Positions 4,956-43,181 of a DNA stretch of 45,657 bases are shown here, in pieces. The position numbers and the translations under genes were made by a program. The stretch's first letter is position 1; each line of letters opens with the position of its first letter. The stretch is from an uncultured Candidatus Saccharibacteria bacterium (GTDB lineage: Bacteria; Patescibacteriota; Andersenbacteria; UBA10190; CAIZMI01): the NCBI GenBank assembly GCA_964630025.1, contig CAZVRG010000004.1, positions 1 to 45,657 of the forward strand, in the 5' to 3' direction. The notes beneath the pieces are model-generated. The model saw nothing but the letters and a program-made list of their open reading frames with translations, searched no databases and was not told the origin of the DNA.

Positions 4956-5546
4956 ATGACGCAATTCATAGGGAACAGGGAACAGAGAACAGGACACAGA
5001 GAACGCACGCAACGCGTCCCTGATCCCTGTTCCCTGATCCCTGTTCCTTTTCCCTCGTCGTCCGCTGGCATCACCTTCATTGAAGTGCTGGTCACGGTCT
5101 TCATCGTTGGGCTTATGTCCACCATTCTTCTCGTTGGCGCTGTCGGTGCGCGGAGAAACGCGACGGTCCGGACTGCCGCGCAGCAGGTAGCGGCATTTCT
5201 TCGTGAGACGGGAAACCTTGCGCTGAACGGCGTGAAAGCAGAAGATTGCGACCCAAGCGATTCGCAGTGCTCTGCCTATCGCGTCACGCTCGGTCCATCA
5301 GACACCAAGACCGCGTACATGCGTCAGGCGCTTGGCGGCGGAGAAGAAGTGCGTGTGCCGTTGCCCGTCGGTGCGGTGTTTCCCGTCACGAATCAAGAAG
5401 TGGAATTCGTCTACACCCCCCCAATCCTTTCTGCAACGGCGGCGGAGATTGCCATAACGCATACAACCGGCGCGCCGCGGTGGCTGGTCTGCGTCACCTC
5501 GCTGGGAAGTGTTACCGTACAAACAGGAGAACAGTGCGTGCAATGA
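4956..5546 (+). CDS. Minor pilin / pseudopilin (prepilin-type N-terminal domain)
   Basis: PSSSAG/ITFIEVLVTVFIVGLM with Glu+5. The ~38-aa leader is encoded by heptamer hairpin H1. No in-frame ATG, GTG or TTG lies between the hairpin and the cleavage motif. Confidence 0.75.
   Translation: MTQFIGNREQRTGHRERTQRVPDPCSLIPVPFPSSSAGITFIEVLVTVFIVGLMSTILLVGAVGARRNATVRTAAQQVAAFLRETGNLALNGVKAEDCDPSDSQCSAYRVTLGPSDTKTAYMRQALGGGEEVRVPLPVGAVFPVTNQEVEFVYTPPILSATAAEIAITHTTGAPRWLVCVTSLGSVTVQTGEQCVQ
4971..5047. repeat. Heptamer-arm hairpin H1 (inside the pseudopilin leader)
   Basis: Left arm GGGAACA GGGAACA GAGAACA GGACACA, core GAGAACGCACGCAACGCGTCCC, right arm TGATCCC TGTTCCC TGATCCC TGTTCC. The arms are near-perfectly complementary. 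Confidence 0.85.
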
Positions 5547-6238
5547 CACAAACACCAGTGAACAGGGAACAGGGAACAGGGAACAGGGAACGCACGCAGC
5601 GTGTCCCTCCAGTCTCTGGCCTAAGTAAGGCCTCGTCGTCCGGCTTTACCCTTCTCGGTGTTCTCATTGGCGCGTTGTTCATTGTTCTTGTCTCCACGGG
5701 ACTTGTGTTCACCGCACAGCGCACGGGACGTGTTGCCACCGCAACCAAAGAACGGCTCATTTCGACACTTCTTGCGCGGGAAGGTGTTGAACTTGTGCGC
5801 GCGATTCGCGATAACAACTGGCTCGCGACGCCGCGGTGTCCTGCAGTTGGCGCGTGCACGATTTTTTGGCGTGGGCAAACGAGTGGTCCGGGTGCACTCT
5901 GTAACGGAACGTTTCGCATCGATGCCGACGCGCTTGAACTTCTCCCTGCTTCCGCAGGTAGTGAAGAAACGCGGCTTGCACTCGATGGCACAGCATACCG
6001 TCATGGCAGCGGCACGCCAACGACATACCGGCGTTGGGTCACTATTGAATCGCCGGAGGAAGGATGCGGAACACCCTCGATCTTCTCCCTCGGATCCATT
6101 CCCGCTCCGCAACCGCCACAGCCGCTGACGGTGCGTGTGGTTGTGGCATGGGACGACAACCCCGATGCTTCCTGTGCGCCAGGCCGTCAGTGTGTTGAAT
6201 TACGAGAAGATCTTCACCCGTGGATGAATTTCCGATGA
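5543..6238 (+). CDS. Minor pilin / pseudopilin-like protein
   Basis: KASSSG/FTLLGVLIGALFIVLV, with no Glu+5. ATG 5543 overlaps the upstream TGA (ATGA), so it was preferred over the 5246 ORF extension, which overlaps the upstream gene out of frame. The leader is encoded by hairpin H2. Confidence 0.7.
   Translation: MTQTPVNREQGTGNRERTQRVPPVSGLSKASSSGFTLLGVLIGALFIVLVSTGLVFTAQRTGRVATATKERLISTLLAREGVELVRAIRDNNWLATPRCPAVGACTIFWRGQTSGPGALCNGTFRIDADALELLPASAGSEETRLALDGTAYRHGSGTPTTYRRWVTIESPEEGCGTPSIFSLGSIPAPQPPQPLTVRVVVAWDDNPDASCAPGRQCVELREDLHPWMNFR
5558..5620. repeat. Heptamer-arm element H2 (degenerate right arm)
   Basis: GTGAACA followed by four GGGAACA units (the last truncated), then core GCACGCAGCGTGTCCC. 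The right arm TCCAGTCTCTGG is only weakly complementary. Confidence 0.7.
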
Positions 6239-6861
6239 ACATACGGATACGAGGGATCAGAGAACAGGGGACAGTGAACAGAGAACGCACCCGACGCGTC
6301 CCTGTCCTCTGTGCTCTGCCCCCTGTCCCCGCGTCGTCCGGCTTTACCTTCATTGAAGCGATTGTTTCTGTTGCCATCTTTCTTGTGCTTATCGGTACGG
6401 TGGCGGGAATTTTTTCCACGTTCTCGCGCCAGCAGAAGCAGGGCATTACGCAGGCAACGCTTCTTGGGGAAGCGCAGGCCGCCATCGAAATCTTGGAACG
6501 GGAAGTACGGACAGGGTTCTCCAATACATTTTCCGGTGCTGGCGCCGCGTTCAGCTTTCGCAACCAAAATAACGTTCTCGTCACGTATGAACTCGCCGAT
6601 GGGCGCCTGATGCGGCGCGCTGTTCCTCCAGATCAAGCAACCCCGGTCACGCCGGCGACTGTGGAGATACGGTCGCTCGAATTTGTGACACGCACGCCAA
6701 CCATCGATCTTGGCGCAGCGCCCCAAGTGCCCATTCTCACCGGAGAACAAGGCCGCGTCACTGTCCGCATGCGCATGTGCCCCACAGGCATTGATACCGA
6801 TCAGCGATGCCTGCAGGTACAGACAACCTTAACGTCGCGCCAATATGCACCCGCACTCTAA
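6235..6861 (+). CDS. Minor pilin / pseudopilin
   Basis: PASSG/FTFIEAIVSVAIFLVLIG with Glu+5. ATG 6235 overlaps the upstream TGA; the alternative start is GTG 6220. The leader is encoded by hairpin H3. Confidence 0.7.
   Translation: MNIRIRGIREQGTVNRERTRRVPVLCALPPVPASSGFTFIEAIVSVAIFLVLIGTVAGIFSTFSRQQKQGITQATLLGEAQAAIEILEREVRTGFSNTFSGAGAAFSFRNQNNVLVTYELADGRLMRRAVPPDQATPVTPATVEIRSLEFVTRTPTIDLGAAPQVPILTGEQGRVTVRMRMCPTGIDTDQRCLQVQTTLTSRQYAPAL
6253..6330. repeat. Heptamer-arm hairpin H3
   Basis: Left arm GGGATCA GAGAACA GGGGACA GTGAACA GAGAAC, core GCACCCGACGCGTCC, right arm CTGTCCT CTGTGCT CTGCCCC CTGTCCCC. Confidence 0.8.
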
Positions 6862-7312
6862 GCGAGAACAGCGCATCACGCACACCTCGTCATCACGCGG
6901 TGATACATCGATTCTTCTTATTTCTCTGTTGCTGATCGTTCTTGTGCTTGGCGCAACGGCACTGACGGTCCTTTCTATAGTGAATCTTCGCGGAGCAGGA
7001 AATGTTGCCGAAAGCTCTCAAGCACTCTATGCCGCTGACACCGGCGTCGAACGCGGATTGTCACTGTACTGGTGGAGCAATCCGTTATCCCCAACATGTA
7101 CGCAGGAAGATAATGTTCCGGTGGGAGACGCCGCAACATACCAACTCACCGTTCGGTCGGATACTGATTCTTGCCCCACATTGCTGGATTTGCAAGGCGG
7201 CGTGCGCGCCCTGTGTGTAGAAGCAATCGGGAAAGTGCGTGATGGCGAGGTACGACGGCGTGTGACCAACGATACAAACCCCACAGGTCTTCTGAATCCC
7301 TGCGGTCGGTAG
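6845..7312 (+). CDS. PilX-like / minor-pilin-like protein with an N-terminal hydrophobic helix
   Basis: ILLISLLLIVLVLGATALTVL followed by ALYAADTGVERGL, reminiscent of PilX N-terminal domains. It overlaps the upstream gene by 17 nt and is last in the pilin operon. Confidence 0.55.
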   Translation: MHPHSKREQRITHTSSSRGDTSILLISLLLIVLVLGATALTVLSIVNLRGAGNVAESSQALYAADTGVERGLSLYWWSNPLSPTCTQEDNVPVGDAATYQLTVRSDTDSCPTLLDLQGGVRALCVEAIGKVRDGEVRRRVTNDTNPTGLLNPCGR

Positions 7313-7316
7313 ACTC

Positions 7317-9552
<2,236 letters not shown>

Positions 9553-9596
9553 GAGTACCGTCGCTTCGCACCCTGCTCTCCGTGTAAGATAGGATT

Positions 9597-9893
9597 ATGG
9601 TTCACTCCGATAGAACACTGGTGCCGCGCATTGCCGATCTTGCGCGTCTTGCGTTGACAGTGGAAGAAGAAAAACGTCTTGCAAAAGAATTCGAGGATAT
9701 TCTTTCCTACGTCAGTCAGGTACAAGAAGTTGACGCGTCAGAAGAACCACTCACCACAACCATCAGCGGCGTGCAGCATGTGCTTCGCAATGATGTGGCT
9801 GCCTCCTCCTCGCTCACAGAAGAGCTGTTGGCATGTGCTCCGGATGTGGAAAAACGTTCGGTGCGTGTTCCGCCGATTCTTTCTGCGTCATGA
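9597..9893 (+). CDS. gatC: Asp/Glu-tRNA amidotransferase subunit C
   Basis: 98 aa with IADLARLALTVEEEKRLAKEFEDILSYV, typical of GatC. Its stop overlaps the gatA start (ATGA). Confidence 0.85.
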   Translation: MVHSDRTLVPRIADLARLALTVEEEKRLAKEFEDILSYVSQVQEVDASEEPLTTTISGVQHVLRNDVAASSSLTEELLACAPDVEKRSVRVPPILSAS

Positions 9894-11320
9894 CCGCCTC
9901 GATTCGTGACCTTCATGAGCGTCTTCGCCGCGGGGAGACGACGGCGGAGAAACTTCTCGATGCCGCGCTCGTCGCCATACGGAAGCAGGATCAAACACTG
10001 CACAGTTTTCTTCATGTCGCCGAGGACTCGGCGCGCGCAGCTGCACAGCGCGTCGATCGCGCATTGCAGTCAGGAACGGAAGAGCTGTCCGTCCTCGCCG
10101 GCATACCCTGCGCGATCAAAGACATGATTTGCGTGGCAGGCCTTCCCGCTACGGCAGCGTCCCACATTCTGGAAGGATTTGTTCCTCCATATGACGCAAC
10201 GGTGATCCAGCGCCTCAAAGACCATGGCGCGGTGATTGTGGGGAAGACCAATCTGGACGAGTTCGCGATGGGTTCGAGCACGGAACATTCCGCGTTCGGT
10301 CCCACGCGCAACCCGCTCGATACAAAACGCGTGCCTGGCGGTTCATCCGGCGGGTCGGCCGCCGCGGTGGCAGCAGGATTTGTCCCCTATGCGCTCGGAA
10401 CAGATACCGGCGGATCGATTCGTCAGCCCAGCAGTTTTTGCGGCATTGTGGGGTTGAAACCCACCTACGGGCGCGTGAGCCGTTCCGGCGTGATCGCACT
10501 CGCCAGTTCCTTTGATCAGGTGGGCCCATTCGCGCGCACCGTCGAAGATGCCGCCATTGTCTATGAAGCAATTGCCGGGGAAGATCCCAAAGACGGAACC
10601 ACGCTGCGCGGCCCGGCGCCAACAGTGCTTCCTGCGCTCACAGAAGGCGTCGAAGGATTACGCATTGGCGTTCCGGAAGAGTATTTCGCCGAAGGCGTAG
10701 ATACAGGCGTTGCGCAGACAGTCCGGAAAGCCATCGGTGCTCTTGCCGGACTCGGTGCCGAAGTGGTTGATGTGTCGTTGCCGCTCACAGGAGTCGCGCT
10801 TGCGGTATACTACATGCTCATGGATTCGGAGGCGTCCACGAATCTCGCTCGCTATGACGGCGTGCGTTTTGGGCAGCGCGTGAAGTCCAAGACTCTTGAG
10901 GAGGTATATCGGAAGAGTCGCGGCGCGGGTTTTGGCGCGGAAGTGAAGCGACGCATTCTTCTGGGGACATTTGCGCTCTCTACGGGCTATGCAGATCAGT
11001 ATTACCGCAAAGCGGCGGCGGTGAGACGCGCAATCGCGAACGAATATGCGAAGGCATTTAAGACCGTTGACGTGCTGGTGTCTCCAGCCGCTCCCGAAGT
11101 GGCGTTCCGTCTCGGAGAGAAAGTAGCCGACCCGTTGCGTATGTATGCGTCGGATGCCTTGTCGGTACCCGCAAACGTTGCGGGCATTCCCGGACTTGTG
11201 GTGCCTTGCGGAACGGTGAACACGCTTCCCGTTGGCGTGCAAGTGCTTGCACCGCTGGGAAGAGAAGATCTGTTGTTTCGCGTTGGTGCCGCGTATGAGC
11301 GTGCGCGGGAACGCGCATGA
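9890..11320 (+). CDS. gatA: Asp/Glu-tRNA amidotransferase subunit A
   Basis: Amidase signature GGSSGGSAAAVA and TDTGGSIRQPSSFCG. ATG 9890 overlaps the gatC stop. Confidence 0.95.
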   Translation: MTASIRDLHERLRRGETTAEKLLDAALVAIRKQDQTLHSFLHVAEDSARAAAQRVDRALQSGTEELSVLAGIPCAIKDMICVAGLPATAASHILEGFVPPYDATVIQRLKDHGAVIVGKTNLDEFAMGSSTEHSAFGPTRNPLDTKRVPGGSSGGSAAAVAAGFVPYALGTDTGGSIRQPSSFCGIVGLKPTYGRVSRSGVIALASSFDQVGPFARTVEDAAIVYEAIAGEDPKDGTTLRGPAPTVLPALTEGVEGLRIGVPEEYFAEGVDTGVAQTVRKAIGALAGLGAEVVDVSLPLTGVALAVYYMLMDSEASTNLARYDGVRFGQRVKSKTLEEVYRKSRGAGFGAEVKRRILLGTFALSTGYADQYYRKAAAVRRAIANEYAKAFKTVDVLVSPAAPEVAFRLGEKVADPLRMYASDALSVPANVAGIPGLVVPCGTVNTLPVGVQVLAPLGREDLLFRVGAAYERARERA

Positions 11321-12789
11321 GCCTTCCCGATTCCATGCGCCGTTGGAAAGAATTGAGTGACACGTTTTTTCTCGCGGCACTCTGCGTATCTGTTGTCGCC
11401 GTGACGGGGTCTGTGCTCACGTTTGCGTTGTTTATGCAGCGCGCGGAAGTAAGCCGAGCGCAGGAGGCAGAGCCCCCTCCGGGTCCACCTCCGCCCGGAG
11501 ATCCACCGCCTCCCCCCGACGCTCCCCCTGTCGAACCGCCCGGTCCGCCTCCACCAGGACCGCCCCCCGGACCGCCTCCCGCGCCTCCTCCTGGACCGCC
11601 GGCACCCCCGCCACCCCCGAAACCGCCGCCAGCGCCTCCTCCACCGGGTCCCGTTCCTCCGCCTGTGCCACCCCCCGGTGGCGGGCCCGCACCCGTACCG
11701 CCTCCAGGCGGCGAGCCACCTGCTGTTGTTCCGCCAACACCCACGTCTCTGATGCAAAGGACTGTATCCCCAGAACCGATGACGCCCATCCAGCAGCCCG
11801 TATCAAGGTTCTCTTCTCCAGCGCAGTATCTTGGTTCTGCAGTGACTGTCATCGCAACAATGAGCGCCGTGGTGACGGGAGTGCTTGCCGCCGTTGCTCT
11901 TCCGTCGGGACTCTCCAGCATACTGCGTTCCTTCTTTCCATTTCTTGCGACACACCGCCGTCGCGCACGCTGGGGGCGGGTCGTGGAAGAAAAGACAAAC
12001 CTTCCTGTTGCAGGTGCCGTGATTACTATTCTTGATGTGTCCGGAAAGCCAAAGGACACCATCATCACACGGAGTGATGGCACGTTTGCCATGGTGCTTC
12101 CCCGTGGCACCTATCGGCTCTCGGTGCAGCATGCCGGATCTCTGTTCGCGTCCGCGCCGCGTGATGTGCTGCTGTTCCCTGAAGAGCAGCTGTACACGGG
12201 TGGCGTTATCACCGTCGAAGAGCAAGAGAAAGTCTTGCCGGACACGCCGCTCGTTCTTGCGATGACGCCCACAGGCGTTCGTCATCAAACATTCCGTGAA
12301 CGTGCGCACCCATTTCTGGAAGGCATGCGTGTGTTCCATGCGCACATCGCGATGCCGCTGCTGCTCACCGCGGCCGCAATCAATTCGTTGCTGCTCCTGA
12401 TCGAACCGAGCCCGCTGCTGGTTGCATACGAAGTTCTCTATGGCGCATTGCTCACGTTTGAACTTCTTCTTTCACGTGTGACGCGCCGCGCGGTCGGACG
12501 TGTTCGCGACGCGATCGGAAAGCACCCTGTGCCGCTTGCCATTGTCCGCTTGTTTGATACAGCAACGCAGCGCGTGGTCGCCACGCGCGTCACTTCGCCG
12601 CGAGGAAGTTACCTGCTGATGCCGCCGCCAGGTCGGTATCGCATCGCGGTCAGTCATCCCGCCCACGTGCCGTACACCAGCGATCCGCTTGCTATCCGCG
12701 GCGGGAGGACGGGGCTTGTGCGTCTCGTTGCGGATCTTGTTTGCTCTCCAAGCGCCGGCGACGTCGCGGGACAAACGCAGGGCATCTAG
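11317..12789 (+). CDS. Proline-rich membrane protein with two carboxypeptidase-regulatory-like domains (paralog P1)
   Basis: N-terminal TM (FFLAALCVSVVAVTGSVL) followed by ~90 aa of polyproline. The motifs WGRVVEEKTNLPVAGAVITILD...DGTFAMVLPRGTYRLSV and GRVRDAIGKHPVPLAIVRLFD...GRYRIAV match the CarboxypepD_reg pattern. ATG overlaps the gatA TGA. Confidence 0.7.
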   Translation: MSLPDSMRRWKELSDTFFLAALCVSVVAVTGSVLTFALFMQRAEVSRAQEAEPPPGPPPPGDPPPPPDAPPVEPPGPPPPGPPPGPPPAPPPGPPAPPPPPKPPPAPPPPGPVPPPVPPPGGGPAPVPPPGGEPPAVVPPTPTSLMQRTVSPEPMTPIQQPVSRFSSPAQYLGSAVTVIATMSAVVTGVLAAVALPSGLSSILRSFFPFLATHRRRARWGRVVEEKTNLPVAGAVITILDVSGKPKDTIITRSDGTFAMVLPRGTYRLSVQHAGSLFASAPRDVLLFPEEQLYTGGVITVEEQEKVLPDTPLVLAMTPTGVRHQTFRERAHPFLEGMRVFHAHIAMPLLLTAAAINSLLLLIEPSPLLVAYEVLYGALLTFELLLSRVTRRAVGRVRDAIGKHPVPLAIVRLFDTATQRVVATRVTSPRGSYLLMPPPGRYRIAVSHPAHVPYTSDPLAIRGGRTGLVRLVADLVCSPSAGDVAGQTQGI

Positions 12790-12842
12790 CACCATCTCAA
12801 ACGATCGTCATTGCGAGAGGAGAGCACGCATGACGGTTTTCC
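12786..12842 (+). terminator. CCATCTCAAA + GTCATTGCGAG-type hairpin after P1
   Basis: CGTCATTGCG-AGAGGAGAG-CACGCATGACG hairpin followed by GTTTT. The preceding CTAGCACCATCTCAAAC recurs inverted at 15404-15424. Confidence 0.5.
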
Positions 12843-12923
12843 ACAGACACCGGAAGTGATCTGCTATGCTATGAAGTATCCGACACAACACACAGCATAT
12901 GCCGATCTCTTTGGCAGTAACCT

Positions 12924-20082: not shown

Positions 20083-20140
20083 TCCCCGTTAGAAACGTTC
20101 CGCAGAAAGAACGTGCAGTCAGTTTCTACCGGGGTATACT
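20083..20140. repeat. CCCCGTTAGAAAC inverted repeat, copy 2, ending in TATACT
   Basis: TCCCCGTTAGAAAC ... GTTTCTACCGGGGTATACT with a 25-nt spacer. TATACT lies at 20135-20140, 9 nt before ATG 20150. Confidence 0.8.
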
Positions 20141-28720: not shown

Positions 28721-28933
28721 ATGGTTTTGTCCGCACTGAAGGCCTTTCGCCTTCCGTCGCTGCTCGGCTTCACCCGTGAGGTCCGGCAGGAACTTAAAGG
28801 TGTGCAATGGCCGAGTCGCGAGACGACGGTGCGTTTTACCGTGCTCGTCATCGGCGTATCGGCAGTTGTCGGCATTGCAACGAGCCTTCTTGATGCTCTC
28901 CTCACGCTTGGGGTTGAACAGATTCTTCCGTAG
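28721..28933 (+). CDS. secE: Preprotein translocase subunit SecE
   Basis: 70 aa with FTREVRQELKGVQWPSRETTVRFTVLVIGVSAVVG, a single TM. It sits upstream of nusG as is usual. Confidence 0.8.
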   Translation: MVLSALKAFRLPSLLGFTREVRQELKGVQWPSRETTVRFTVLVIGVSAVVGIATSLLDALLTLGVEQILP

Positions 28934-29002
28934 CTTCTAGCTTGTAGCTTGTAGGCGGTCATAACGCACGTTCCTATAAACTAGAAGCTATAACCTAGAA
29001 CC
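28931..29002. repeat. Heptamer-arm hairpin H4 (fills the secE-nusG gap)
   Basis: Left arm TAGCTTC TAGCTTG TAGCTTG TAGG, core CGGTCATAACGCACGTT, right arm CCTATAA ACTAGAA GCTATAA CCTAGAA. It starts on the secE stop codon and ends 8 nt before the nusG ATG. Confidence 0.8.
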
Positions 29003-30688: not shown

Positions 30689-31111
30689 ATGGCAAAGGAA
30701 GTTCTTACGCAGGTAAAGCTGCAGATTCCCGGCGGGAAAGCGACGCCGGCGCCTCCCATTGGGCCGGCGCTGGGTCAGCATGGCGTGAACATACAAGACT
30801 TCTGCTCGAAGTTCAACGAGCAAACACGCGACAAGCAGGGCGAAGTGACGCCTGTAGTGCTGACAATTTATAAGGATCGCTCGTTCACCTTCATTTTCAA
30901 AACCCCGCCCGCAGCGGAGCTCTTGAAGAAAGCTGCGGGGGTTGAGAAAGGGTCCGGCACGCCAAACACCGCGAAAATCGGCACCGTCACGAAAGCACAG
31001 GTGCGCGAGATTGCGGAAAAGAAAATGGTGGACTTAAATGCCTCCGGTGTTGATGAGGCGATGCGGATTATCGAAGGCACCGCGCGGTCTATGGGGATTT
31101 CAGTTAAATAA
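30689..31111 (+). CDS. rplK: 50S ribosomal protein L11
   Basis: [26 protein letters not shown] and the full-length L11 pattern. Confidence 0.95.
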
Positions 31112-31112
31112 T

Positions 31113-31221
31113 CAAGCTCCAATAACCAAGCTCCAAACAATGTTCAAGCTCCAAGCTCCAAAACACTCCCGTTTTTTCATTGAGTATTGGAATTGTTTGG
31201 AATTTGGAATTTGAGATTTGG
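31113..31221. repeat. Heptamer-arm hairpin H5 (fills the rplK-rplA gap)
   Basis: The left arm is rich in AAGCTCC/CAAGCTC units and the right arm in GGAATTT/GAATTTG units. Pairing needs G.U pairs and a few mismatches. Confidence 0.75.
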
Positions 31222-31235
31222 TATTTTTTACGACT

Positions 31236-31913
31236 ATGCCTTCCAAACGCTACCAAGCCGCCAAAAAAGAACGTCCTACGGAAGCAAAATCCCTCCCGGA
31301 GGCCGTGAGCTTCGTGCATGCGCACGCAAAGGCGAAATTCGATGAAACGATCGAGCTGCACGCGCATCTCGGCGTCGACCCGAAAAAGAGCGACCAGTCC
31401 GTGCGTGGCACGCTTGTGTTTCCACACGGTGCCCCATCCAGCGTCCGTATCGCCGTCTTTACCGACGATCGTGAACTGCAGAAGTTGGCAAAAGAAGCTG
31501 GGGCGGATGTTGTCGGGGGCGAAGAACTGATTGCGAAGGTCAAGACCGAAGAAAAGCTCGACGCAGACGTTGCTGTGGCAACACCGGATTCCATGAAAGG
31601 TCTCGCAGCGGTTGCCAAGGTGCTTGGTCCCAAAGGGCTTATGCCGAATCCGAAAACGGGCACGATCGGTCCGGATCCTGCGAAGATTGTGAAAGAATTA
31701 AAGGGCGGGAAAACCGCATTTAAGATGGACGATTCCGGAAACGTACACCTTGCCGTCGGGAAAGCATCATGGGATGTCGAGAAACTCACGGCGAATACGA
31801 AGGCGGCGATTGATGCGCTCCGGCAATCCAAGCCGGCCGCTGCAAAAGGGGAGTTCCTGAAGTCCATGACGCTCACGTCCACCATGGGTGCGGGCGTACG
31901 GGTAAGAGTCTAA
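31236..31913 (+). CDS. rplA: 50S ribosomal protein L1
   Basis: KFDETIELHAHLGVDPKKSDQSVRGT and GPKGLMPNPKTGT. The start was set to ATG 31236. Confidence 0.95.
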   Translation: MPSKRYQAAKKERPTEAKSLPEAVSFVHAHAKAKFDETIELHAHLGVDPKKSDQSVRGTLVFPHGAPSSVRIAVFTDDRELQKLAKEAGADVVGGEELIAKVKTEEKLDADVAVATPDSMKGLAAVAKVLGPKGLMPNPKTGTIGPDPAKIVKELKGGKTAFKMDDSGNVHLAVGKASWDVEKLTANTKAAIDALRQSKPAAAKGEFLKSMTLTSTMGAGVRVRV

Positions 31914-31926
31914 AAAGTCAGCATAC

Positions 31927-31958
31927 AGAAAAAGAGCGGCTCCATGATATGGTGCCGC
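31927..31958 (-). terminator. Hairpin terminator oriented for the minus strand (may also serve rplA)
   Basis: On the minus strand, GCGGC-A-CCAT-ATC-ATGG-A-GCCGC is followed by TCTTTTTCTG. Confidence 0.6.
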
Positions 31959-32006
31959 CCTTAGTAATTGCGTACTTCCCAAATGATCGTGTTTCGACAA
32001 AGGACG

Positions 32007-32084
32007 TCATGAACGGAGCTTGTTGCCGAATGTTCCCTTCCTGTACAGCGCAAGCATCACCTGTTTATTCGGGACCTCGGACAT
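32007..32084 (-). CDS. Candidate 25-aa small ORF (MSEVPNKQVMLALYRKGTFGNKLRS)
   Basis: Not in the ORF track because it is too short. A strong SD GAGGAGGA lies 6 nt upstream of the ATG, and a terminator lies ~50 nt downstream. It sits in a lower-GC 320-nt gap. Confidence 0.35.
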   Translation of the reverse strand: MSEVPNKQVMLALYRKGTFGNKLRS

Positions 32085-32202
32085 TTCTTTCCTCCTCAAA
32101 AGTAGACAAATGAACAGACGAACAATACCCATGCGATAGTACGAGCCGAAATGCTTTGTGTCTAGAGCTTGGCTCACATCGCATAATCACTTGATCACCC
32201 GC

Positions 32203-32231
32203 TTGTCCTCAATAAGCACTCGCCGTACGCT
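32203..32231 (+). promoter_or_regulatory. Putative promoter of gatB
   Basis: TTGTCC, a 17-nt spacer, then TACGCT. The ATG lies 6 nt after the -10 box, implying a leaderless mRNA. Confidence 0.5.
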
Positions 32232-32237
32232 ACATCT

Positions 32238-33725
32238 ATGGAACTTGAAACCATCATCGGCCTGGAGATTCACGTCCATTTGAATACGAAATCGAAGCTG
32301 TTTTGCAGCTGCCGTAACGTGTCGGCGGCTGATCGACCGAATCAATACGTCTGTCCGGTCTGCATGGGATTCCCAGGGACGCTGCCCGTGACGAATGCGC
32401 AAGCGATTGAATGGACGGCGCTCGCCGGTCTGGCGCTTGGCTGTACCATTGCGAAGCACGCGACCTTTGCGCGGAAGAGCTATTTCTATCCCGATCTGCC
32501 GAAGGGATACCAAATCTCACAGTACGATGAGCCGCTCTGCATACACGGAGAAGCGCATGTGTTTGTGGGTGACACCGATCGCCACGTGCGTATTGAGCGC
32601 GTGCATCTGGAAGAAGATGCGGCAAAGAACGTACATACCAAGGATGCAACGCGTATTGATCACAACCGCGCAGGGACGCCGTTGATCGAAATCGTCACTG
32701 CGCCCGATCTGCGTAGTCCGCAGGAAGCAAAAATGTTTCTGGAAGAGCTGCAGCGCACCATGTGGTATCTCCGCATTTCAAACGCCGACATGGAAAACGG
32801 CGATCTTCGCGTGGACGCAAATATCTCCTTGCGCGAGCAGGGAGGAAAACTTTCGCCGAAGACGGAAATCAAAAACCTTAACTCTTTCCGCGCGGTCGAG
32901 CGTGCGCTCGCGTATGAAATTGAGCGCCAGCAAAAACTGTGGGAGGCAGGAACGCCGCCGACGACATCCAGCACGCGAGGATGGAATGATGAAAAAGGGC
33001 AGACGGTGGAGCAGCGCGTGAAAGAAGCGGAAGCGGATTACCGATACTTTCCCGAGCCGGATATTCCACCCCTTGTGTTGGAGCCTTCGTGGGTCGAGAA
33101 GCTTCGCATCGCACTTCCAGAACTTCCGCATGCGAAGGAAGAACGTTTCCGTCGCCAATATCAGATGGCGCCGGCGGACGCACGTTTGATCACGACGGAT
33201 CGTTCACTTGCCGACTTCGCAGAAAATGTCTTTTCCGAGATTGGGGAATGGGTTGCGGAACGGCCAGATGTCGAGCAGCGCGAAATTCCCCTCCTGGAGA
33301 AGCTCGCCACGAATTATCTGCTCGGAGATTTTCGACGGCTTCTTTCAGACGCAAAGGCAACTGTGGCCGATACAAAAGTCACACCCGAGAATTTCGCGGA
33401 ACTTGTCGTGATGCTGCATCGCGCTGAAGTAAATCGAAACGCCGTGCCGGATGTTCTGCGTCTCATGCACGGGACAGGCGGCGATCCTTCCACCATCGTG
33501 CAAGAGCGCGGCTTGCAGCAGGTATCGGATGCGGATGAACTGCGTCGTCTCGTGCAGAACGTCGCATTGAGTTTTCCGGCAGAAGTAGACAAGGTCCGCG
33601 GCGGGAAAGAACAAACACTGGAATTTCTTGTGGGACAAGTGATGGCGCAAACAAAGGGTCGCGCGAATCCCAAGACCGTGCGCGAGCTCTTCCGCGAAGA
33701 GTTAGGACTGTCAACGAGCGGGTAA
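32238..33725 (+). CDS. gatB: Asp/Glu-tRNA amidotransferase subunit B
   Basis: IGLEIHVHLNTKSKLFC, NQYVCPVCMGFPGTLP and RKSYFYPDLPKGYQISQ, plus a C-terminal GatB/YqeY domain. Confidence 0.95.
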   Translation: MELETIIGLEIHVHLNTKSKLFCSCRNVSAADRPNQYVCPVCMGFPGTLPVTNAQAIEWTALAGLALGCTIAKHATFARKSYFYPDLPKGYQISQYDEPLCIHGEAHVFVGDTDRHVRIERVHLEEDAAKNVHTKDATRIDHNRAGTPLIEIVTAPDLRSPQEAKMFLEELQRTMWYLRISNADMENGDLRVDANISLREQGGKLSPKTEIKNLNSFRAVERALAYEIERQQKLWEAGTPPTTSSTRGWNDEKGQTVEQRVKEAEADYRYFPEPDIPPLVLEPSWVEKLRIALPELPHAKEERFRRQYQMAPADARLITTDRSLADFAENVFSEIGEWVAERPDVEQREIPLLEKLATNYLLGDFRRLLSDAKATVADTKVTPENFAELVVMLHRAEVNRNAVPDVLRLMHGTGGDPSTIVQERGLQQVSDADELRRLVQNVALSFPAEVDKVRGGKEQTLEFLVGQVMAQTKGRANPKTVRELFREELGLSTSG

Positions 33726-34754
33726 GGGTTTCCCCAAGAATTCGGACATACAGTCGAGGGCCTCTGCGGGCGAGTCCACTCGAACAAGCTCGGGCTCCTT
33801 CGTGAGCCAGAGAAGCTGTCGACGGACATACTGGCGATGCGAGCGGAGCACTGCCTCTTTCGTCTCCTCAAGCGTGCCTTCGCCGCGGAGGTGTGAGAGC
33901 ACTTGCCGGTACCCGACAGATTGCAATCCGGGCGCGTCTGCGCCATAGGCGTTCACAAGTGCCTGCACTTCTTCAACAAACCCGCGGCGGAAGTATTCTT
34001 CGACACGACGCGCAAGGCGCTGTTCGAGTATCTCCGGAGGCGGAAGAAGCGCGAGTTTTAGAAAGCGGAAGGCAGTAGGCAACGGGGAAGAGGCAGTAGG
34101 GGCGAGGACGACGTCGCGTGCATCCCTACTCCCTACTGCCTGTTGCCTGTTCCCTCGAGCTCTCGCAATTTCCAGCGCCCGAATCACCCGCCGCGTATTC
34201 TTGAGATTGTCGATGCCAGTGAAAAGGTCTGGCGCGCGTGTTTCCAGTTCCTGAAGAAGATCCGCAAGCGGTTGTTGCTCCGCCCACGCACGGAATGCGG
34301 GATCCGGCGGCACGGAAGGCAGTGAGCGATGACCTGTGAGCACACGGACATAAAAACCCGTTCCTCCAACCACAATGGGAAGTTTTCCGCGCTTGTGGAT
34401 GTCGGCAATGATATGTTGCGCGTCCTCGCGAAATTCAGCAGCGGAATACCGCTGCGTTGGGAGAAGAATATCGATAAGATAGTGGGGAACATCCTCACAG
34501 AACAATGGTTCTGTTCGGAAACCTCGAAGCTTGAATGACGAATGACGAATGCGAGTAGTTTCGAAATTCGAAATTCGGAATTCGAATGTACACGGTTTAT
34601 CCGTTCCAATATCCATCCCGAGATAAATCTGTCGGGAATCAGCACTGATAATCTCTCCGTTGTATTTCTTCGCGAGTTCCAACGCGAGCGCGGATTTCCC
34701 CGCACCGGTGGGACCCATCAAGACGACCAATGGGAGGTGAGCTTGCGATGGCAT
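33711..34754 (-). CDS. miaA: tRNA dimethylallyltransferase MiaA carrying two in-frame hairpin-element insertions
   Basis: P-loop MGPTGAGKS, ADSRQIYLGMDIGTDKP, PIVVGGTGFY and GYRQV. The start was set to ATG 34754 because the longer ORF reads through hairpin H8. The 3' end overlaps gatB convergently by 15 nt. Confidence 0.9.
   Translation of the reverse strand: MPSQAHLPLVVLMGPTGAGKSALALELAKKYNGEIISADSRQIYLGMDIGTDKPCTFEFRISNFETTRIRHSSFKLRGFRTEPLFCEDVPHYLIDILLPTQRYSAAEFREDAQHIIADIHKRGKLPIVVGGTGFYVRVLTGHRSLPSVPPDPAFRAWAEQQPLADLLQELETRAPDLFTGIDNLKNTRRVIRALEIARARGNRQQAVGSRDARDVVLAPTASSPLPTAFRFLKLALLPPPEILEQRLARRVEEYFRRGFVEEVQALVNAYGADAPGLQSVGYRQVLSHLRGEGTLEETKEAVLRSHRQYVRRQLLWLTKEPELVRVDSPAEALDCMSEFLGKPLPAR
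34072..34155. repeat. Heptamer-arm hairpin H7 (inside the miaA CDS)
   Basis: Twelve consecutive heptads (84 nt = 28 codons): GGCAGTA GGCAACG GGGAAGA GGCAGTA GGGGCGA GGACGAC GTCGCGT GCATCCC TACTCCC TACTGCC TGTTGCC TGTTCCC. Confidence 0.85.
34533..34588. repeat. Heptamer-arm element H6 (inside the miaA CDS)
   Basis: GAATGAC GAATGAC GAATGCG AGTAGTT TCGAAAT TCGAAAT TCGGAAT TCGAATG. CGAAT/ATTCG blocks pair at 7-nt spacing, separated by 2-nt mismatches. Confidence 0.7.
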
Positions 34755-34787: not shown

Positions 34788-34914
34788 AAGAAGCTCCAAG
34801 CTCCAAATGCCAAGCTTCAAGTAATGCTCAATCCGGCAATACGTAAACGCGCCAGTCGCTTTGCGTATTGGACTTGGAACTTGTTTGGAGCTTGGTGCTT
34901 GAAACTTGGAGTTT
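34788..34914. repeat. Heptamer-arm hairpin H8 (divergent intergenic region upstream of miaA)
   Basis: Left arm AAGCTCC AAGCTCC AAATGCC AAGCTTC AAGTAAT..., core ACGTAAACGCGCCAGTCGCTTTGCGTA, right arm ...CTTGGAA CTTGTTT GGAGCTT GGTGCTT GAAACTT GGAGTTT. Confidence 0.8.
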
Positions 34915-35551: not shown

Positions 35552-35616
35552 TCACCCGATCGTATCGGTGTTTGGCATTGGAAGATACCCCGCGAGTTTT
35601 ATCTGATCGCTAGAAT

Positions 35617-38127: not shown

Positions 38128-38667
38128 ATGGATGTGCCGCGGCATTTCGCCGAGTCGGGCTTTATTCCACAGACGAGGTGGTTCACAGACGAAGAATACA
38201 CCCGGATCCTTGATGGGATTGTGGTTAGTTGTGTGGACTGCATACTCGTGCATCGCGGTCGCATGCTGATCGGCTTTCGTGCAAGCGAACCGTACGTCGG
38301 CTGGTGGGTGCTCGGTGGCCGCATGCTGCCGGGCGAGAGCTTCGAAGACACCGCGCAACGCGTCACCAAACGGGAAACGAGCCTCCATATCGACGACCCC
38401 AGTAGATTTGCGTACCTGAACACGATCTCGTATGTGTGGACGAAGCGTGCGCAATCTCCACGGGGTCATGGATGCCACATGATCGGAAATAATGTGATGA
38501 TCGTCCTCTCCGACGAGGAAGCTTCTGCGATTCGAAAGATGTCTGATTTCACAGCACTGCAATGGATTGCGCCGAACGAAGTCCTCCGAGCAGGAGGCGC
38601 GGAGTTTCATGAGGCCATCCACTACTTCGCGCGCGAGGTCGCGCAGCGAGAAGGGAGATCAGCGTGA
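38128..38667 (+). CDS. NUDIX hydrolase (GDP-mannose mannosyl hydrolase-like degenerate Nudix box)
   Basis: GGRMLPGESFEDTAQRVTKRETSL, preceded by VSCVDCILV...MLIGFRASEPYVGWWVL, resembling the NudD/WcaH pattern as recalled. Confidence 0.65.
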   Translation: MDVPRHFAESGFIPQTRWFTDEEYTRILDGIVVSCVDCILVHRGRMLIGFRASEPYVGWWVLGGRMLPGESFEDTAQRVTKRETSLHIDDPSRFAYLNTISYVWTKRAQSPRGHGCHMIGNNVMIVLSDEEASAIRKMSDFTALQWIAPNEVLRAGGAEFHEAIHYFAREVAQREGRSA

Positions 38668-39446: not shown

Positions 39447-39473
39447 TGTATGTGTCTTTTCGCTCTAATCAAA

Positions 39474-39508
39474 CGCCAGCAGTCATATGACCGCTGGCAT
39501 TTTCTTTT
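39474..39508 (+). terminator. Terminator in the convergent gap with dnaE
   Basis: CGCCAGC-AGTCATATGAC-CGCTGGC followed by ATTTTCTTTT. Confidence 0.75.
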
Positions 39509-42500
39509 AGATCACAGGAGTTCTGACAGTTTCGAATGCGTCTTCGGGAGAGGCTATTTCGATAGCTTCCGCGTCGAGCAGCGTACACAGCTGCTTCTTC
39601 GCCTGACCATCAAGCGTCACGGTGAATGATGTTTTCACCAGATCCACCGCGCCGTTCTGTTTCGGGACGCGGAGATACACGCGGATCGGACCGGGCGGAA
39701 GCGCGCCGAGGAATTCCTTTAGGGAAAGTAATATTGTGCGGCTTCCGTTTGGCGGTACTGCCAGGATTGCATATGGTGGCGGTGGCGTTTCCAGAACAAG
39801 ACGGCGTTCTTGTGATTGTGGGGCGTGTGACGCTGACGCACCGATAGGCTGCATCGTTTCAGAGACGCGTGTTGCTTCTTCGCAGAGAATTTTTGGGACA
39901 CCGTCGCGATCATTTACCCGGCCTTCCACTATGAGAATAGTTTCTTCTGCCCAGAGATCCGGATGTGCTTCTAAGATTTTGGGAAACACCAGGACTTCCA
40001 CGGAGCCCGTTTGGTCTTCCAGCGTCACGAATGCCATGGTCTCTCGGCTCCGCGTAACGACTTTTTGCACATGCGTCACAATGCCGCCGACACAGACGCT
40101 GTAGTCCACGAGGTCTGTAGAAATATCTTTCATGGGCGTTGTCCGACCGGCGAGGAGATGTGCCACCGTGGCGACCGGATGGCCAGACACGTACAGTCCA
40201 AGAAGTTGTTTTTCCCATTGCAACCGTTGCGTCGCAGGAGCGGGAGGGACAGGGCGAAGCGTGACAGACGGCACACCCTTCTCGTCGGACCCACCGAAAA
40301 GTGCTCCTTGTCCCGCGAGTTCCTGCTTTTGCATATTGCGGCCAAGCTGGAGAAGCATGTCGAGGTTTTCCAGCATCGCATTGCGCTCGCCGAGAGCGTC
40401 GAGCGCTCCTGCTTTTATCAAGCTTTCTGCAGCTTTCCGGTTGAATTCTCGTGTCTGCACGCGCTGAAAGAACTCCGCAAGCGAGCGGAACGGCCCGCCA
40501 GAAGCGCGTGCGTCGAGAATGGCACGCACAACACCCGCACCCACATTTTTCACCGCGACAAGACCGAAGCGAATAGCCTTGCGATTCGCGGAATCCTTAT
40601 TCCGTAGTTCTAATTCCCGGTTCTCCGTAGTGGTCACCACCGTAAAGTGTTCTCCGCTCTCATTCACGTCTGGCGGAAGTACCGGAATGCCCATGGTCGT
40701 ACATTCGGTGACCTCAATGGCGATGCGGTCGGTGTCGTTTTCGTCCGATGTGAGCAGCGCGGCCATGAATGCTGCGGGGTAATGTGTCTTGAGATAGGCA
40801 GTTTGATAGGCGATGAGGGCATAGCATGCCGCATGCGCGCGGTTAAAACCGTAATTCGCGAAGGGTTCGATGAAGGCAAATATTTTTTCGGCTGTTGTTG
40901 TATCGACGCCGTTTTTGACTGCTCCGTCAATGAATTTTTCTTTTTGTGCCTTCAGGAGCTTTTCAATTTTCTTTCCCACGGCCTTGCGGAGGATATCCGC
41001 TTCTCCAAGGGTGAAGCCAGCGATCGCGCGCGCGATTTCCAACACCTGCTCCTGATAGACGGCGATGCCGTAGGTCTTTTTCAAGATGGGCTCGAGCGCG
41101 GGGTGAAGGTACTTCGGTGTCTGCAAGCCATGCTTTCCCGCAACGTATTGCGGGATCAGTTCCATCGGTCCCGGGCGGTAGAGCGATACCATCGCGATAA
41201 TGTCTTCAAATTCCGTCGGCTTCAGTTCTTTGAGATTCCGCTTCATGCCTGCGCTCTCCAGCTGAAAGACACCGGTTGTCAGACCTTCCTGGAGCGTTCG
41301 GTACGTTGGCGCATCGTCGAGAGGCAGCGCGTCGAGGTCGATGTTCACGCCAGCGTGTTCTCGGATTACCCGGAGAGCGTGCCCGAGAATCGTCAGGTTT
41401 TTTAATCCCAAGAAATCGATTTTCAACAGACCAAGATTTTCGATCGCATGCATTTCGTATTGTGTGACGATGGTTGCGTCATCCGTGCTCACGCGTTGCA
41501 CGGGAACATGCTCCACGAGTGGGGAGGGCGTGATAACAACGCCGGCGGCATGGGTGCTTGCATGGCGGGCAACCCCCTCAAGTTTTTTTGCGGTATCGAG
41601 AAGACGCTGCACTTGTGGATCGTCGGCGGCGAGCTGCCGGAGCTCTTTCGATTCTTGCCGCGCTTTATCCAGCGATGTGCCGAACGGGATGAGCTTCGCG
41701 ACTTTGTCGCAGAAGGTATACGGAAATCCCAGTGCGCGGCCCACATCGCGTACTGCAGCGCGTGCCGCCATGGTTCCAAAGGTGATAATTTGCGCGACGT
41801 GATCGCGTCCGTAGCGTTCACGAACGTATTGCAGTACTTCTTCACGCCGGTCATCGGCAAAATCCAAATCGATATCTGGCATGCTAATGCGTTCGGGATT
41901 TAAGAAGCGCTCGAAGACGAGCCGGTGTTTCAACGGGTCGATATTCGTGATGTTGAGGAGATAACTAATCAGCGATCCGGCGGCCGACCCACGGCCCGGG
42001 CCAACGAAAATCCCCTGACGCTTCGCCCAATTCACGAAGTCCTGAACAATGAGGAAATATCCGGCGAAGCCTGTTTTCTCGATAACGCCCAGTTCATATT
42101 CCATGCGTTCTCGTGCCTCTGCGGGTAGGGCGGCTCCATACCGCATGGTCATGCCGTCTTCCGCGAGACGGCGAAGGGCGGCATCCGGCGTCTCGGTAGG
42201 CGAGAGCGGGAACGACGGGAGAATAGACTTGCCGAACGTCAGCTTGGTGGTACAGCGCTCCGCAATGCGGACGGTATTTTCGAGCGCTTCCGGCACATCG
42301 CGAAATGCCTCTGCGAATGCCTCCGTCGTTTGAATGCTGAAGTCTTCGCCGAGCATGGACAGGCGATCTCGATCCGTCACGCGGGTTCCGGTTTGCACGC
42401 ACAGAAGGACATCTTGCGCTTCCGCGTCTTCGCGTCGGACATAGTGTGCGTCTCCCGTGGCCACAAGGTGAAGGCCGTGCGTGCGGGCCAACGCGCGCAG

Positions 42501-43073
42501 TCCTTCGTTCACCCTTCCTTGTTCGGGAAGCGATGGATGATGCTGGAGTTCGAGAAAGAACCGTTCTCGACCAAACACGTCGAGATGCCATTGCACAAGC
42601 CGCTCGACCTCCGTCGCATCACCGCGGATGATTGCTTGCGGGAGATCACCGTTAATGCATCCCGACAGTACGATGAGACCAGTGGCGTATTGCTGAAGCG
42701 TTGCGTAGTCAATGCACGGCTTTCGGTAAAAACCGTTCAGATGCGCGTCGGAAATGAGTTTGAGTAAGCTTTGGTATCCCTGCGTGTTTTCGGCGAGAAG
42801 CGTGAGATGGCGAATCGTTTTTTCGCCAGGTGTGCTTTCCCGCGCTCTTTGGCGGTCAGGGACAAGATACGCCTCAACACCGAGAATCGGCTTGAGTTCG
42901 CGCTTCTTTGCTTCTTCCCAAAACTCGACAAGCCCGTGGAGCACGCCGTGATCGGTGAGCGCAACCGAACGCATGCCCAATTCCTTCACGCGATCAAGAA
43001 TATCCGGAATCTTTCCGAGCCCGTCCAGGAGAGAATAATGACTATGAACGTGAAGGTGAACGAAGTCGGACAT
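39507..43073 (-). CDS. dnaE: DNA polymerase III alpha subunit
   Basis: PHP domain HLHVHSHYSLLDG. The 1188-aa collinear DnaE pattern includes GFAGYFLIVQDF, PDIDLDF and a C-terminal OB fold. TACAAT lies 6 nt upstream of the ATG. Confidence 0.95.
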   Translation of the reverse strand: MSDFVHLHVHSHYSLLDGLGKIPDILDRVKELGMRSVALTDHGVLHGLVEFWEEAKKRELKPILGVEAYLVPDRQRARESTPGEKTIRHLTLLAENTQGYQSLLKLISDAHLNGFYRKPCIDYATLQQYATGLIVLSGCINGDLPQAIIRGDATEVERLVQWHLDVFGRERFFLELQHHPSLPEQGRVNEGLRALARTHGLHLVATGDAHYVRREDAEAQDVLLCVQTGTRVTDRDRLSMLGEDFSIQTTEAFAEAFRDVPEALENTVRIAERCTTKLTFGKSILPSFPLSPTETPDAALRRLAEDGMTMRYGAALPAEARERMEYELGVIEKTGFAGYFLIVQDFVNWAKRQGIFVGPGRGSAAGSLISYLLNITNIDPLKHRLVFERFLNPERISMPDIDLDFADDRREEVLQYVRERYGRDHVAQIITFGTMAARAAVRDVGRALGFPYTFCDKVAKLIPFGTSLDKARQESKELRQLAADDPQVQRLLDTAKKLEGVARHASTHAAGVVITPSPLVEHVPVQRVSTDDATIVTQYEMHAIENLGLLKIDFLGLKNLTILGHALRVIREHAGVNIDLDALPLDDAPTYRTLQEGLTTGVFQLESAGMKRNLKELKPTEFEDIIAMVSLYRPGPMELIPQYVAGKHGLQTPKYLHPALEPILKKTYGIAVYQEQVLEIARAIAGFTLGEADILRKAVGKKIEKLLKAQKEKFIDGAVKNGVDTTTAEKIFAFIEPFANYGFNRAHAACYALIAYQTAYLKTHYPAAFMAALLTSDENDTDRIAIEVTECTTMGIPVLPPDVNESGEHFTVVTTTENRELELRNKDSANRKAIRFGLVAVKNVGAGVVRAILDARASGGPFRSLAEFFQRVQTREFNRKAAESLIKAGALDALGERNAMLENLDMLLQLGRNMQKQELAGQGALFGGSDEKGVPSVTLRPVPPAPATQRLQWEKQLLGLYVSGHPVATVAHLLAGRTTPMKDISTDLVDYSVCVGGIVTHVQKVVTRSRETMAFVTLEDQTGSVEVLVFPKILEAHPDLWAEETILIVEGRVNDRDGVPKILCEEATRVSETMQPIGASASHAPQSQERRLVLETPPPPYAILAVPPNGSRTILLSLKEFLGALPPGPIRVYLRVPKQNGAVDLVKTSFTVTLDGQAKKQLCTLLDAEAIEIASPEDAFETVRTPVI

Positions 43074-43096
43074 GTTTCTATTGTACTTCTCACTTC

Positions 43097-43181
43097 GGGC
43101 ATAGGGTATGGGGAATGGGGCATAGGGTTACGCAGAGACGTAAGCGAGAAACCATGCACCATGCCCCAACCCCCACGCACC
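43097..43181. repeat. Heptamer-arm hairpin H9 (divergent region upstream of dnaE)
   Basis: Left arm GGGCATA GGGTATG GGGAATG GGGCATA GGGTTAC, core GCAGAGACGTAAGCGAGAAA, right arm CCATGCA CCATGCC CCAACCC CCACGCA. Confidence 0.8.

Follow-up and report, generated by a model that had tools for sequence, protein, structure and literature searches.

Heptad-armed hairpin elements in a candidate phyla radiation genome resemble the STRR sequences of cyanobacteria

Sequences of the short tandemly repeated repetitive (STRR) type, heptanucleotide repeats reportedly described from filamentous, heterocyst-forming cyanobacteria by Mazel et al. in 1990 (J Bacteriol 172:2755) and by Vioque in 1997 (NAR 25:3471), have been known since 1990 and have been treated as a cyanobacterial peculiarity. 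The present work concerns nine short hairpin elements, H1 to H9, with arms made of tandem 7-nt units, which are located in a 45,657-nt stretch of DNA (contig CAZVRG010000004.1, positions 1 to 45,657, here called the window) from a metagenome-assembled genome (MAG) of the candidate phyla radiation (CPR). The STRR sequences are 7-bp repeats with the ability to fold into hairpins, as in the case of hupS and hupL, which have one between them; no function has been established for the repeats, and transcript stability and translational coupling have been proposed as roles (PMC2670836). Elements in the window and STRR sequences have in common the 7-nt tandem unit, the many unit sequences per genome, the dispersed occurrence, the frequent location in spacers between operon genes and the ability to form hairpins. 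They differ in their hosts, filamentous, heterocyst-forming cyanobacteria in one case and a Parcubacteria/CPR MAG with a reduced genome in the other, and also in that arrays in the window are short (3-7 units) and nearly always dyads, whereas many STRR arrays of cyanobacteria are long, with as many as about 75 units, and one-armed. Unlike described STRR sequences, five of the nine copies in the window lie in translated protein-coding sequence.

Several other known systems show a partial likeness. Rickettsia palindromic elements (RPE), said to have been reported by Ogata et al. in 2000 (Science) and not known from outside Rickettsia, form families of 100-150 bp with conserved sequence, are palindromic, occur in-frame in protein genes, are translated and are tolerated in non-essential surface segments. 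H1-H3, H6 and H7 likewise are palindromes of a reduced genome located in-frame in coding genes and translated, but RPE lack heptad periodicity and are not known to have any sequence relationship to the units or apexes of the window. The repetitive extragenic palindromic (REP) sequences and bacterial interspersed mosaic elements (BIME) of Proteobacteria are short, many-copy, non-autonomous operon hairpins, which are thought to be mobilized in trans as folded single strands by RAYT (a Y1, IS200/IS605-like enzyme) and can stabilize upstream mRNA. Short intergenic hairpins within operons are found in the window as well, but REP sequences are conserved over about 35 nt, lack tandem heptads and are not known from coding sequence, whereas the window copies have no common consensus; no RAYT or IS200/IS605 gene was detected in the 45.7-kb window. 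Integron attC sites conserve a hairpin architecture with little sequence conservation, contain 7-bp core boxes and flank cassettes beside intI. They have two box pairs instead of tandem arrays, and an assignment of the elements to integron attC sites or to CRISPR was ruled out because no integrase, no cassettes and no spacer-repeat structure are present in the window. Contingency loci, such as the 7-bp repeats upstream of the Haemophilus influenzae hmw genes, are single, perfect and highly polymorphic arrays; they share with the window a unit length not divisible by three and a location at surface-structure genes, but the window elements are imperfect dyads that occur also in housekeeping genes and spacers.

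A sequence-only reading of the window had described nine loci with heptad arms, and all nine were found where it had placed them (Table 1; its labels H6 and H7 are kept although they are swapped relative to coordinate order, H7 being 34072-34155 and H6 34533-34588). With Tandem Repeats Finder, period-7 arrays were obtained at eight of the nine loci; H9 (43097-43181) had no period-7 row, and direct reading of its sequence revealed imperfect heptads (GGGCATA GGGTATG GGGAATG GGGCATA). When the window was scanned for period-7 arrays, seven arrays with scores of at least 11 (168 nt) were detected as compared to none in 30 dinucleotide-preserving shuffles, and so the claimed periodicity withstood its control. 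The same scan found no arrays of period 4-13 other than 7, or of period 15, in the window, and its period-14 signal corresponds to 2 × 7. A sliding-window periodicity statistic recovered the same loci and none beyond them in the window. Period 7 is the sole enriched short period in the window. Copies are present in coding and in non-coding DNA, as had been said, with H1-H3, H6 and H7 located in open reading frames (ORFs) and H4, H5, H8 and H9 in intergenic regions; this distribution and the 7-nt period rule out a protein repeat and uphold the earlier view of a hairpin family at the nucleic-acid level.

In the common format of the elements, arms of 3-7 units are nearly always dyadic around an apex of 15-30 nt. 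The inverted-repeat arms are 80-94% complementary, and at eight of the nine loci an array and an inverted, largely complementary array form a hairpin whose RNA fold is more stable than that of shuffled sequences, with z-scores from -2.8 to -8.0 (H1, -8.0; H3, -3.1; H4, -3.4; H5, -3.6; H7, -3.1; H6, -2.8; H8, -5.0; H9, -2.9). H2 is the sole locus not clearly more stable than its shuffles (z = -1.6), because its right arm has decayed. The typical stem has 5-6 bp and then a symmetric mismatch of 1-2 nt in each heptad, and therefore the dyad arms proposed earlier are confirmed but their complementarity, which had been called near-perfect, was overstated. The elements H1-H3 are also present in other assemblies: a contig of NCBI GCA_007375805.1 covers positions 4169-13213 of the window at 100% identity, an ENA assembly covers 4169-11557 (99.99%) and a Logan assembly covers 4847-6402 (100%), each of them including H1-H3. 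No indels were found in H1-H3 among these three assemblies and the window, four assemblies that may share or overlap in reads. An assembly artefact was ruled out by the occurrence of H1-H3 in the three other assemblies at 99.99-100% identity, with read sets possibly overlapping.

A scan of the window against Rfam 15 returned, above the gathering score, three tRNAs only and matched no element. In a scan for promoter and terminator consensus sequences, counts in the window equaled those of shuffles and nothing was located on the elements. When fold stability and G-U pair counts were compared between strands, no consistent preference for the sense strand was observed, which provides no evidence for RNA-level selection and fits a DNA-level or neutral origin. 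In agreement with the earlier statement that the window lacks a transposase, no transposase, integrase or reverse transcriptase was detected in its 45.7 kb.

The likeness to STRR sequences extends to details of architecture and to one unit. In the atpA-atpG spacer of Dolichospermum (L100 3850-3960), a heptad-dyad hairpin (z = -5.8) with 5-6 bp and a mismatch per unit has the same interrupted-stem architecture as the window elements. A search with the peptide encoded by a (GGGAACA)n/(TGTTCCC)n hairpin gave upward of 1,200 matches at E <= 1 to short "hypothetical proteins", and among the 120 matches listed the named ones are from filamentous cyanobacteria (Moorena, Dolichospermum, Trichormus, Coleofasciculus and Anabaena, among others); these proteins evidently represent ORFs called across arrays of the GGGAACA unit. 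Two cyanobacterial loci, from Trichormus and Dolichospermum, contain 11 and 9 period-7 arrays in 16 and 20 kb, among them (AGGGAAC)x20 and (CCTGTTC)x13, and arrays whose unit is the very GGGAACA of the window are abundant in Trichormus, Dolichospermum and Moorena. A Nostoc plasmid displayed a likewise exclusive enrichment of period 7, and the arrays of the Trichormus and Dolichospermum loci are of period 7 only. The sequence-only reading had known of no described class for these elements; from their architecture, from the Dolichospermum hairpin and from the identical GGGAACA unit, that class is recognizable as STRR (PMC2670836). A comparison of CPR and cyanobacterial unit repertoires gave, beyond GGGAACA (itself the search query), one exact match, AATTACG, which is about what chance and AT bias would give.

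As a separate observation, about 75 heptads (AATGACC/AATGACT, in a 21-nt super-repeat) at L099 7154-7684 of Trichormus are called within a 221-aa "gene", and public databases apparently hold hundreds of short hypothetical proteins that are translated STRR arrays.

The claim that the nine loci share almost no sequence did not survive closer comparison, as they fall into families. A GGGAACA unit and an apex GCACGC-RACG-YGTCC are common to H1, H2, H3 and H7 (family A), as the earlier reading had seen for the core; that of H7 is on the minus strand, which is the sense strand of miaA. H4, H5 and H8 make up an AAGCTNC family, in which H5 aligns with H8 over their length (alignment A4, three rows including the reverse complement of H8; mean column identity 74%) and the H4 unit AAGCTAC is one position apart from AAGCTCC of H8. 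At least five unit types occur among the nine loci in 45.7 kb, and no single consensus is shared by all copies, which have in common their architecture and are divided into several families. The arms of one element can differ in a characteristic manner: in the right arm of H5 all units carry AAT where the left arm would pair with AGC, and an ortholog of H4 in a relative (L096) has TAGCTGG x4 on one arm facing CAAGCTA units on the other. Such variant units, homogenized within one arm and uncompensated in the other, would be the signature of slippage turnover within the arm, and homogenization of each arm by itself leads to stems with one mismatch per heptad.

Searches for further sequence constraints gave little. 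Six matches to the family-A apex GAACGCACSCRRCGYGTCCCT were obtained from JGI metagenome contigs, none of the six in a heptad context, so that they are considered chance matches and the apex is not widely conserved. Units that are stop-free in all six frames were not enriched (9/20, 4/23 and 3/15 as compared to 50% of all heptamers), and a preference of the units for 4-bp palindromes (for instance AGCT, CATG, TCGA and GGCC) was dismissed as unconvincing, with about half of the units by hand count as compared to an expected ~36%. Adjoining H6 within miaA, a small stem (34498-34515) of 7 bp, ACAGAAC / GTTCTGT, with a 4-nt loop, has an arm that resembles the family-A unit and may be the remnant of another element.

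Relatives were compared through syntenic contigs (L081, L082, L096, L097 and L098; for pilin loci L090 and L091), and sites occupied in the window were found empty, occupied by the same unit or occupied by another one. The rplK-rplA spacer has 126 nt in the window, where it holds H5. The corresponding spacers of L081 and L082 (3 nt each) and of L098 (14 nt) represent empty sites for H5; in L096 the spacer has 96 nt and a different heptad array (GAATCTG). In the secE-nusG spacer, L081 and L096 have an H4 ortholog that keeps the unit of the window, and L098 has a 3-nt spacer and no element. Among the three H4 sequences one pair has changed on both sides, and a covariation argument for structure-level selection on H4 was rejected, as three sequences and one changed pair are too little. 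Upstream of miaA, AAGCTCC (H8) in the window is replaced by other heptad hairpins, GAGTTAT in L081 and TAGCTTN, a window family reused at another place, in L097. At a first site within miaA (site 1), the window carries GAATTTC/CGTCATT (H6), L081 and L082 are empty, and L096, L097 and L098 carry GGCCATG (H9-like), ATTGGAA (compare the right arm of H5) and GGGGCAT (H9-like), respectively, so that four different units occupy this site across the window and these three contigs. The empty sites which the sequence-only reading had proposed to look for were thus found, but the target-site duplications were not. Just upstream of rplK, L081 (9295-9345) and L082 (10625-10675) have a short period-7 array (AGCGTGG/AGCGTGA) that is conserved between both.

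Loci from more distant bacteria were sampled by a genome-collection search with the window MiaA, in which the best matches were CPR MAGs at 40% identity or less. In 33 loci of named CPR MAGs (465 kb), 14 period-7 arrays were detected versus 0-3 for each other period from 5 to 11, and 34 non-CPR loci (568 kb) contained one period-7 array. Open frames of more than 300 aa enclose 11 of the 14 CPR arrays. In distant CPR lineages, including Moranbacteria (L010) and Doudnabacteria (L048) as well as L035, L006 and L031, miaA has arrays at the same two sites as in the window, and heptad arrays were also found in putative miaB of three CPR-like MAGs (L003, L006 and L044). Read by eye, the latter arrays (L003 4591-4616, L006 4039-4058 and L044 8663-8688) are A-rich (AAAAATC, AAAAGTC), in-frame and at one shared position of putative miaB, just upstream of the conserved ...TSHPKD region.

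In all five coding copies (H1-H3, H6 and H7) the reading frame is kept and no stop codon occurs, from which it appears that these copies are translated and not excised. That they sit in-frame in prepilin leaders and MiaA loops had gone unmentioned in the sequence-only reading. H1-H3 are located in three consecutive minor-pilin genes with overlapping stop/start codons (ATGA), and each lies between the start codon and the prepilin cleavage motif G/F-T-x-I-E (slash, cleavage position). They lengthen the prepilin leaders by about 17-28 residues, as exemplified by the translation of H1, MTQFIGNREQRTGHRERTQRVPDPCSLIPVPFPSSSAG/ITFIEVLV. The leader of pilin 1 has 38 residues in the window versus 9-10 in five orthologs at 62-72% identity, and the orthologs at 70-72% identity display the empty site as a 10-residue leader, MTRVRRWSSG/FT. 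For pilin 2 (H2) the leader has 33 aa in the window versus 16 aa in L090 and L091, and for pilin 3 (H3) L091 has a 10-aa leader, again an empty site. As PilD is encoded immediately upstream, the extra residues would be expected to be cleaved off together with the leader. Stable hairpins that do not consist of heptads were seen in minor-pilin leaders of relatives, in gene 3 of L090 (7500-7650, z = -4.0) and in gene 1 of L091 (10010-10160, z = -3.5); the former sits at the place of H3 and its apex CCCGACGTGTCC resembles the H3 apex. In this clade, palindromic DNA seems to land in prepilin leaders quite generally.

An alignment of 24 MiaA proteins reveals that the window protein has extra residues at two sites, after GTDKP (site 1, H6) and after RALEIARAR (site 2, H7). 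Inserts of varied length and sequence are present at those exact sites in about half of the proteins (12/24 at site 1), the homologs with inserts align on either side of them, and inserts of many lengths are all in frame. The site 1 insert is missing from the two closest relatives, P0002 and P0003 (72% identity). An AlphaFold2 model of the window MiaA has a mean predicted local distance difference test (pLDDT) score of 83, and the only stretches below 50 are residues 58-77 and 211-220, to be compared with residues ~56-74 and ~200-228 encoded by H6 and H7, respectively. According to this model, the segments encoded by H6 and H7 are probably low-confidence loops.

Taken together, we favor, with a probability of roughly 55%, the explanation that the elements are selfish or near-neutral palindromic repeats of the STRR type, maintained by 7-nt slippage, rarely copied to permissive sites and translated without harm in leaders and loops. 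They would be short, non-coding, non-autonomous hairpins, each of the two arms being a small array of 7-nt units in tandem. Through slipped-strand mispairing, units would be gained, lost and homogenized 7 nt at a time, such that an arm stays periodic as its sequence drifts, and hairpin-templated correction or selection would keep the arms largely complementary, with each arm homogenizing alone and the stem thereby interrupted by one mismatch per heptad. On rare occasions, machinery acting in trans would place a copy of a family member at a new site. Given the compactness of a CPR genome, copies would survive only at harmless sites such as operon spacers, divergent promoter spacers, leaders cleaved by PilD and disordered surface loops (MiaA), and any benefit, for instance REP-like mRNA stabilization or tuning of downstream translation, would be secondary. 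Several points weigh against this explanation. No mobilizing enzyme was detected within the 45.7-kb window, and no target-site duplication or conserved terminal motif is present at the filled and empty sites compared. The reuse of the same sites across distant CPR lineages could reflect ancient vertical inheritance or a function, and the conservation of H4 in three genomes hints at selection. No copy-number polymorphism exists at H1-H3 among the four assemblies, so that ongoing slippage is putative. The 7-nt step is left unaccounted for by the evidence presented here. In filamentous cyanobacteria and across CPR a dedicated mechanism with a 7-nt ruler, which repeatedly writes translated segments into housekeeping proteins and leaders at preferred sites, is a speculative possibility that we consider rather improbable; its agent might be an enzyme that recognizes the shape of folded single-stranded hairpins and lengthens or copies these by 7 nt per step.

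Alternatively, the elements might be selected cis-regulatory RNA structures (mRNA stabilizers, processing sites, attenuators or devices for translation coupling, similar to REP/BIME or as proposed for STRR), with the heptads as a by-product. H4 and H5 exactly fill spacers in conserved operons and a T-run follows H5, H4 is kept with the same unit in three genomes and shows one compensatory pair, H1-H3 start 14-18 nt past the start codons, and the proposals of transcript stability and translational coupling made for STRR sequences (PMC2670836) point in the same direction. We nevertheless regard regulation as unlikely, since the closest relatives lack H5, H1, H6 and H8 and have otherwise intact genes, one site holds different unit families in different genomes, neither a sense-strand G-U bias nor an Rfam match was found in the window, and a location in protein-coding loops is hard to account for by RNA regulation. 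It is also doubtful, and to us somewhat less plausible than regulation, that the elements arose locally and were inherited vertically without any mobility, seeded palindromes or arrays having been remodeled by slippage and quasi-palindrome correction and the likeness of units being due to convergence or gene conversion. The absence of target-site duplications and terminal motifs at the compared sites and of a transposase in the window would be expected from such an origin, distant CPR lineages carry arrays at the same two MiaA sites, relatives with an "empty" MiaA still have a longer linker than non-CPR MiaA, and gene conversion is plausible for H1-H3, which lie in adjacent paralogous leaders. 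But H7 in miaA has the unit and apex of H1-H3 from 29 kb away, H5 aligns with H8 over its length, the 3-nt spacers in L081 and L082 would require a precise loss, and the rplK-rplA spacer is filled by different families in the window and in L096.

Two further possibilities concern the coding copies. If these were contingency (phase-variation) loci, the frame would shift and pilin genes would be switched on and off whenever a single 7-nt unit was gained or lost, which would suit the non-triplet arrays at the 5' end of three pilin genes and the five nearly perfect units of H2. This is very improbable, as elements are located in miaA and in non-coding spacers as well, most arrays are short and imperfect, no length variation was seen in H1-H3 in the four assemblies (which may share reads), and orthologs are simply without arrays. 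Still harder to believe is that the copies act as intervening sequences and are taken out of the RNA or the protein, which would account for their tolerance in genes. CPR genomes are known for insertions in rRNA genes and the hairpin shape would suit an RNA-level excision signal, but 5/5 coding copies are in frame and stop-free (the chance for the frame alone being ~(1/3)^5 if untranslated) and homologs with inserts of many lengths have all of them in frame.

With the STRR architecture seen in Parcubacteria and in other CPR lineages, and one or more units identical, a second, very different genomic background, tiny and gene-dense, is available for this class, and gene content, repair systems and insertion sites compared between cyanobacteria and CPR could narrow down the mechanism. 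Selfish hairpin DNA, if that is what the elements are, can enter conserved proteins (MiaA, MiaB) and cleavable prepilin leaders in streamlined genomes, which bears on how new peptide segments arise. For the annotation of CPR proteins, such elements would account for "insertions", false N-terminal extensions and spurious small ORFs, and in assembly, contigs tend to break at repeats.

The positions of the elements and of the two genes most closely connected with them are collected in Table 1. The gene content of the window is ordinary and comprises genes for housekeeping functions and for the type IV pilus, namely pilB/T/C, a pilin, PilD, four minor pilins, ligA, gatCAB, gyrB, secE, nusG, rplKA, miaA, a hisS-like gene, dnaE and ftsW. 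The first heptad of H4 supplies the TAG stop codon of secE. A relative of the window MiaA at 60% identity (P0010) is from "Parcubacteria group bacterium Gr01-1014_38", and closer relatives have 62-72% identity.

Table 1. Heptad-armed hairpin elements of the window and associated genes (window coordinates).
Feature	Position	Strand	Description
H1	4970..5049	+	Family A hairpin (AGGGAAC)n, apex GCACGCAACGCGTCC, (TCCCTGW)n; leader-coding part of minor-pilin gene 1 (4956-5546); fold -44.4 kcal/mol
H2	5556..5620	+	Family A; left arm (GGGAACA)x5 intact, right arm decayed; leader of minor-pilin gene 2 (5543-6238); Tandem Repeats Finder 96% match
H3	6253..6330	+	Family A; leader of minor-pilin gene 3 (6235-6861)
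H4	28931..29002	+	(TAGCTTS)n / (CTAnAAG)n hairpin; fills secE-nusG spacer
H5	31111..31222	+	(CCAAGCT)n / (TTGGAAT)n hairpin; fills rplK-rplA spacer; T-run after it
H7	34068..34156	-	Family A, in-frame in miaA site 2 (after RALEIARAR); sense strand GGGAACAGGCAACAGGCAGTAGGG, apex GCACGCGACGTCGTCC, then CCCTACTGCC...
H6	34531..34588	-	(GAATTTC)n / (CGTCATT)n hairpin (sense strand), in-frame in miaA site 1 (after GTDKP)
H8	34791..34914	.	Long (AAGCTCC)n / (TTGGAGC)n hairpin; located upstream of miaA, in the region between divergent genes; -52.3 kcal/mol
H9	43097..43185	.	(GGGCATA/GGGNATG)n / (CCATGCM)n hairpin; located in the spacer of 124 nt that separates the divergent genes dnaE (39507-43073, -) and a membrane-protein gene (43198+)
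PilD prepilin peptidase (Peptidase_A24)	4043..4834	+	Directly upstream of the three pilin genes with H1-H3; identical sequence in L093 annotated PF06750/PF01478
miaA (tRNA dimethylallyltransferase)	33711..34754	-	Host of H6 and H7; Pfam IPPT, E = 1.6e-56

Other features of the window were observed in passing. The rplA-gatB interval (31913-32238) has about 325 nt, and a thymidylate kinase gene is located there in L081, L082, L096 and L098. The product of ORF 12924-15311 has 795 aa and a CarboxypepD_reg domain; at 13720-14170 this ORF contains repeats with periods of 9, 12 and 36 nt that are CCN/GGN-rich (collagen-like Gly-Pro-X at the DNA level), and the NCBI contig of the same organism stops at 13213 within this ORF, upstream of the repeat block. 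Six occurrences of a motif of 12 nt, TCTAACGGGGTA (nACTA comes after it), were counted in the window versus 0.06 expected, with sites at 4835-4854/4917-4936, 20125-20136, 26254-26268/26306-20 and 34928-34943/34955-34970. It usually precedes a start codon by 10-25 nt (pilin gene 1, gyrB, the 20150 ORF and the 34982 gene), and two copies 11-62 nt apart are often inverted with respect to each other; in L082 the region upstream of miaA is flanked by a similar inverted pair, and the motif may be a lineage-specific promoter or operator.

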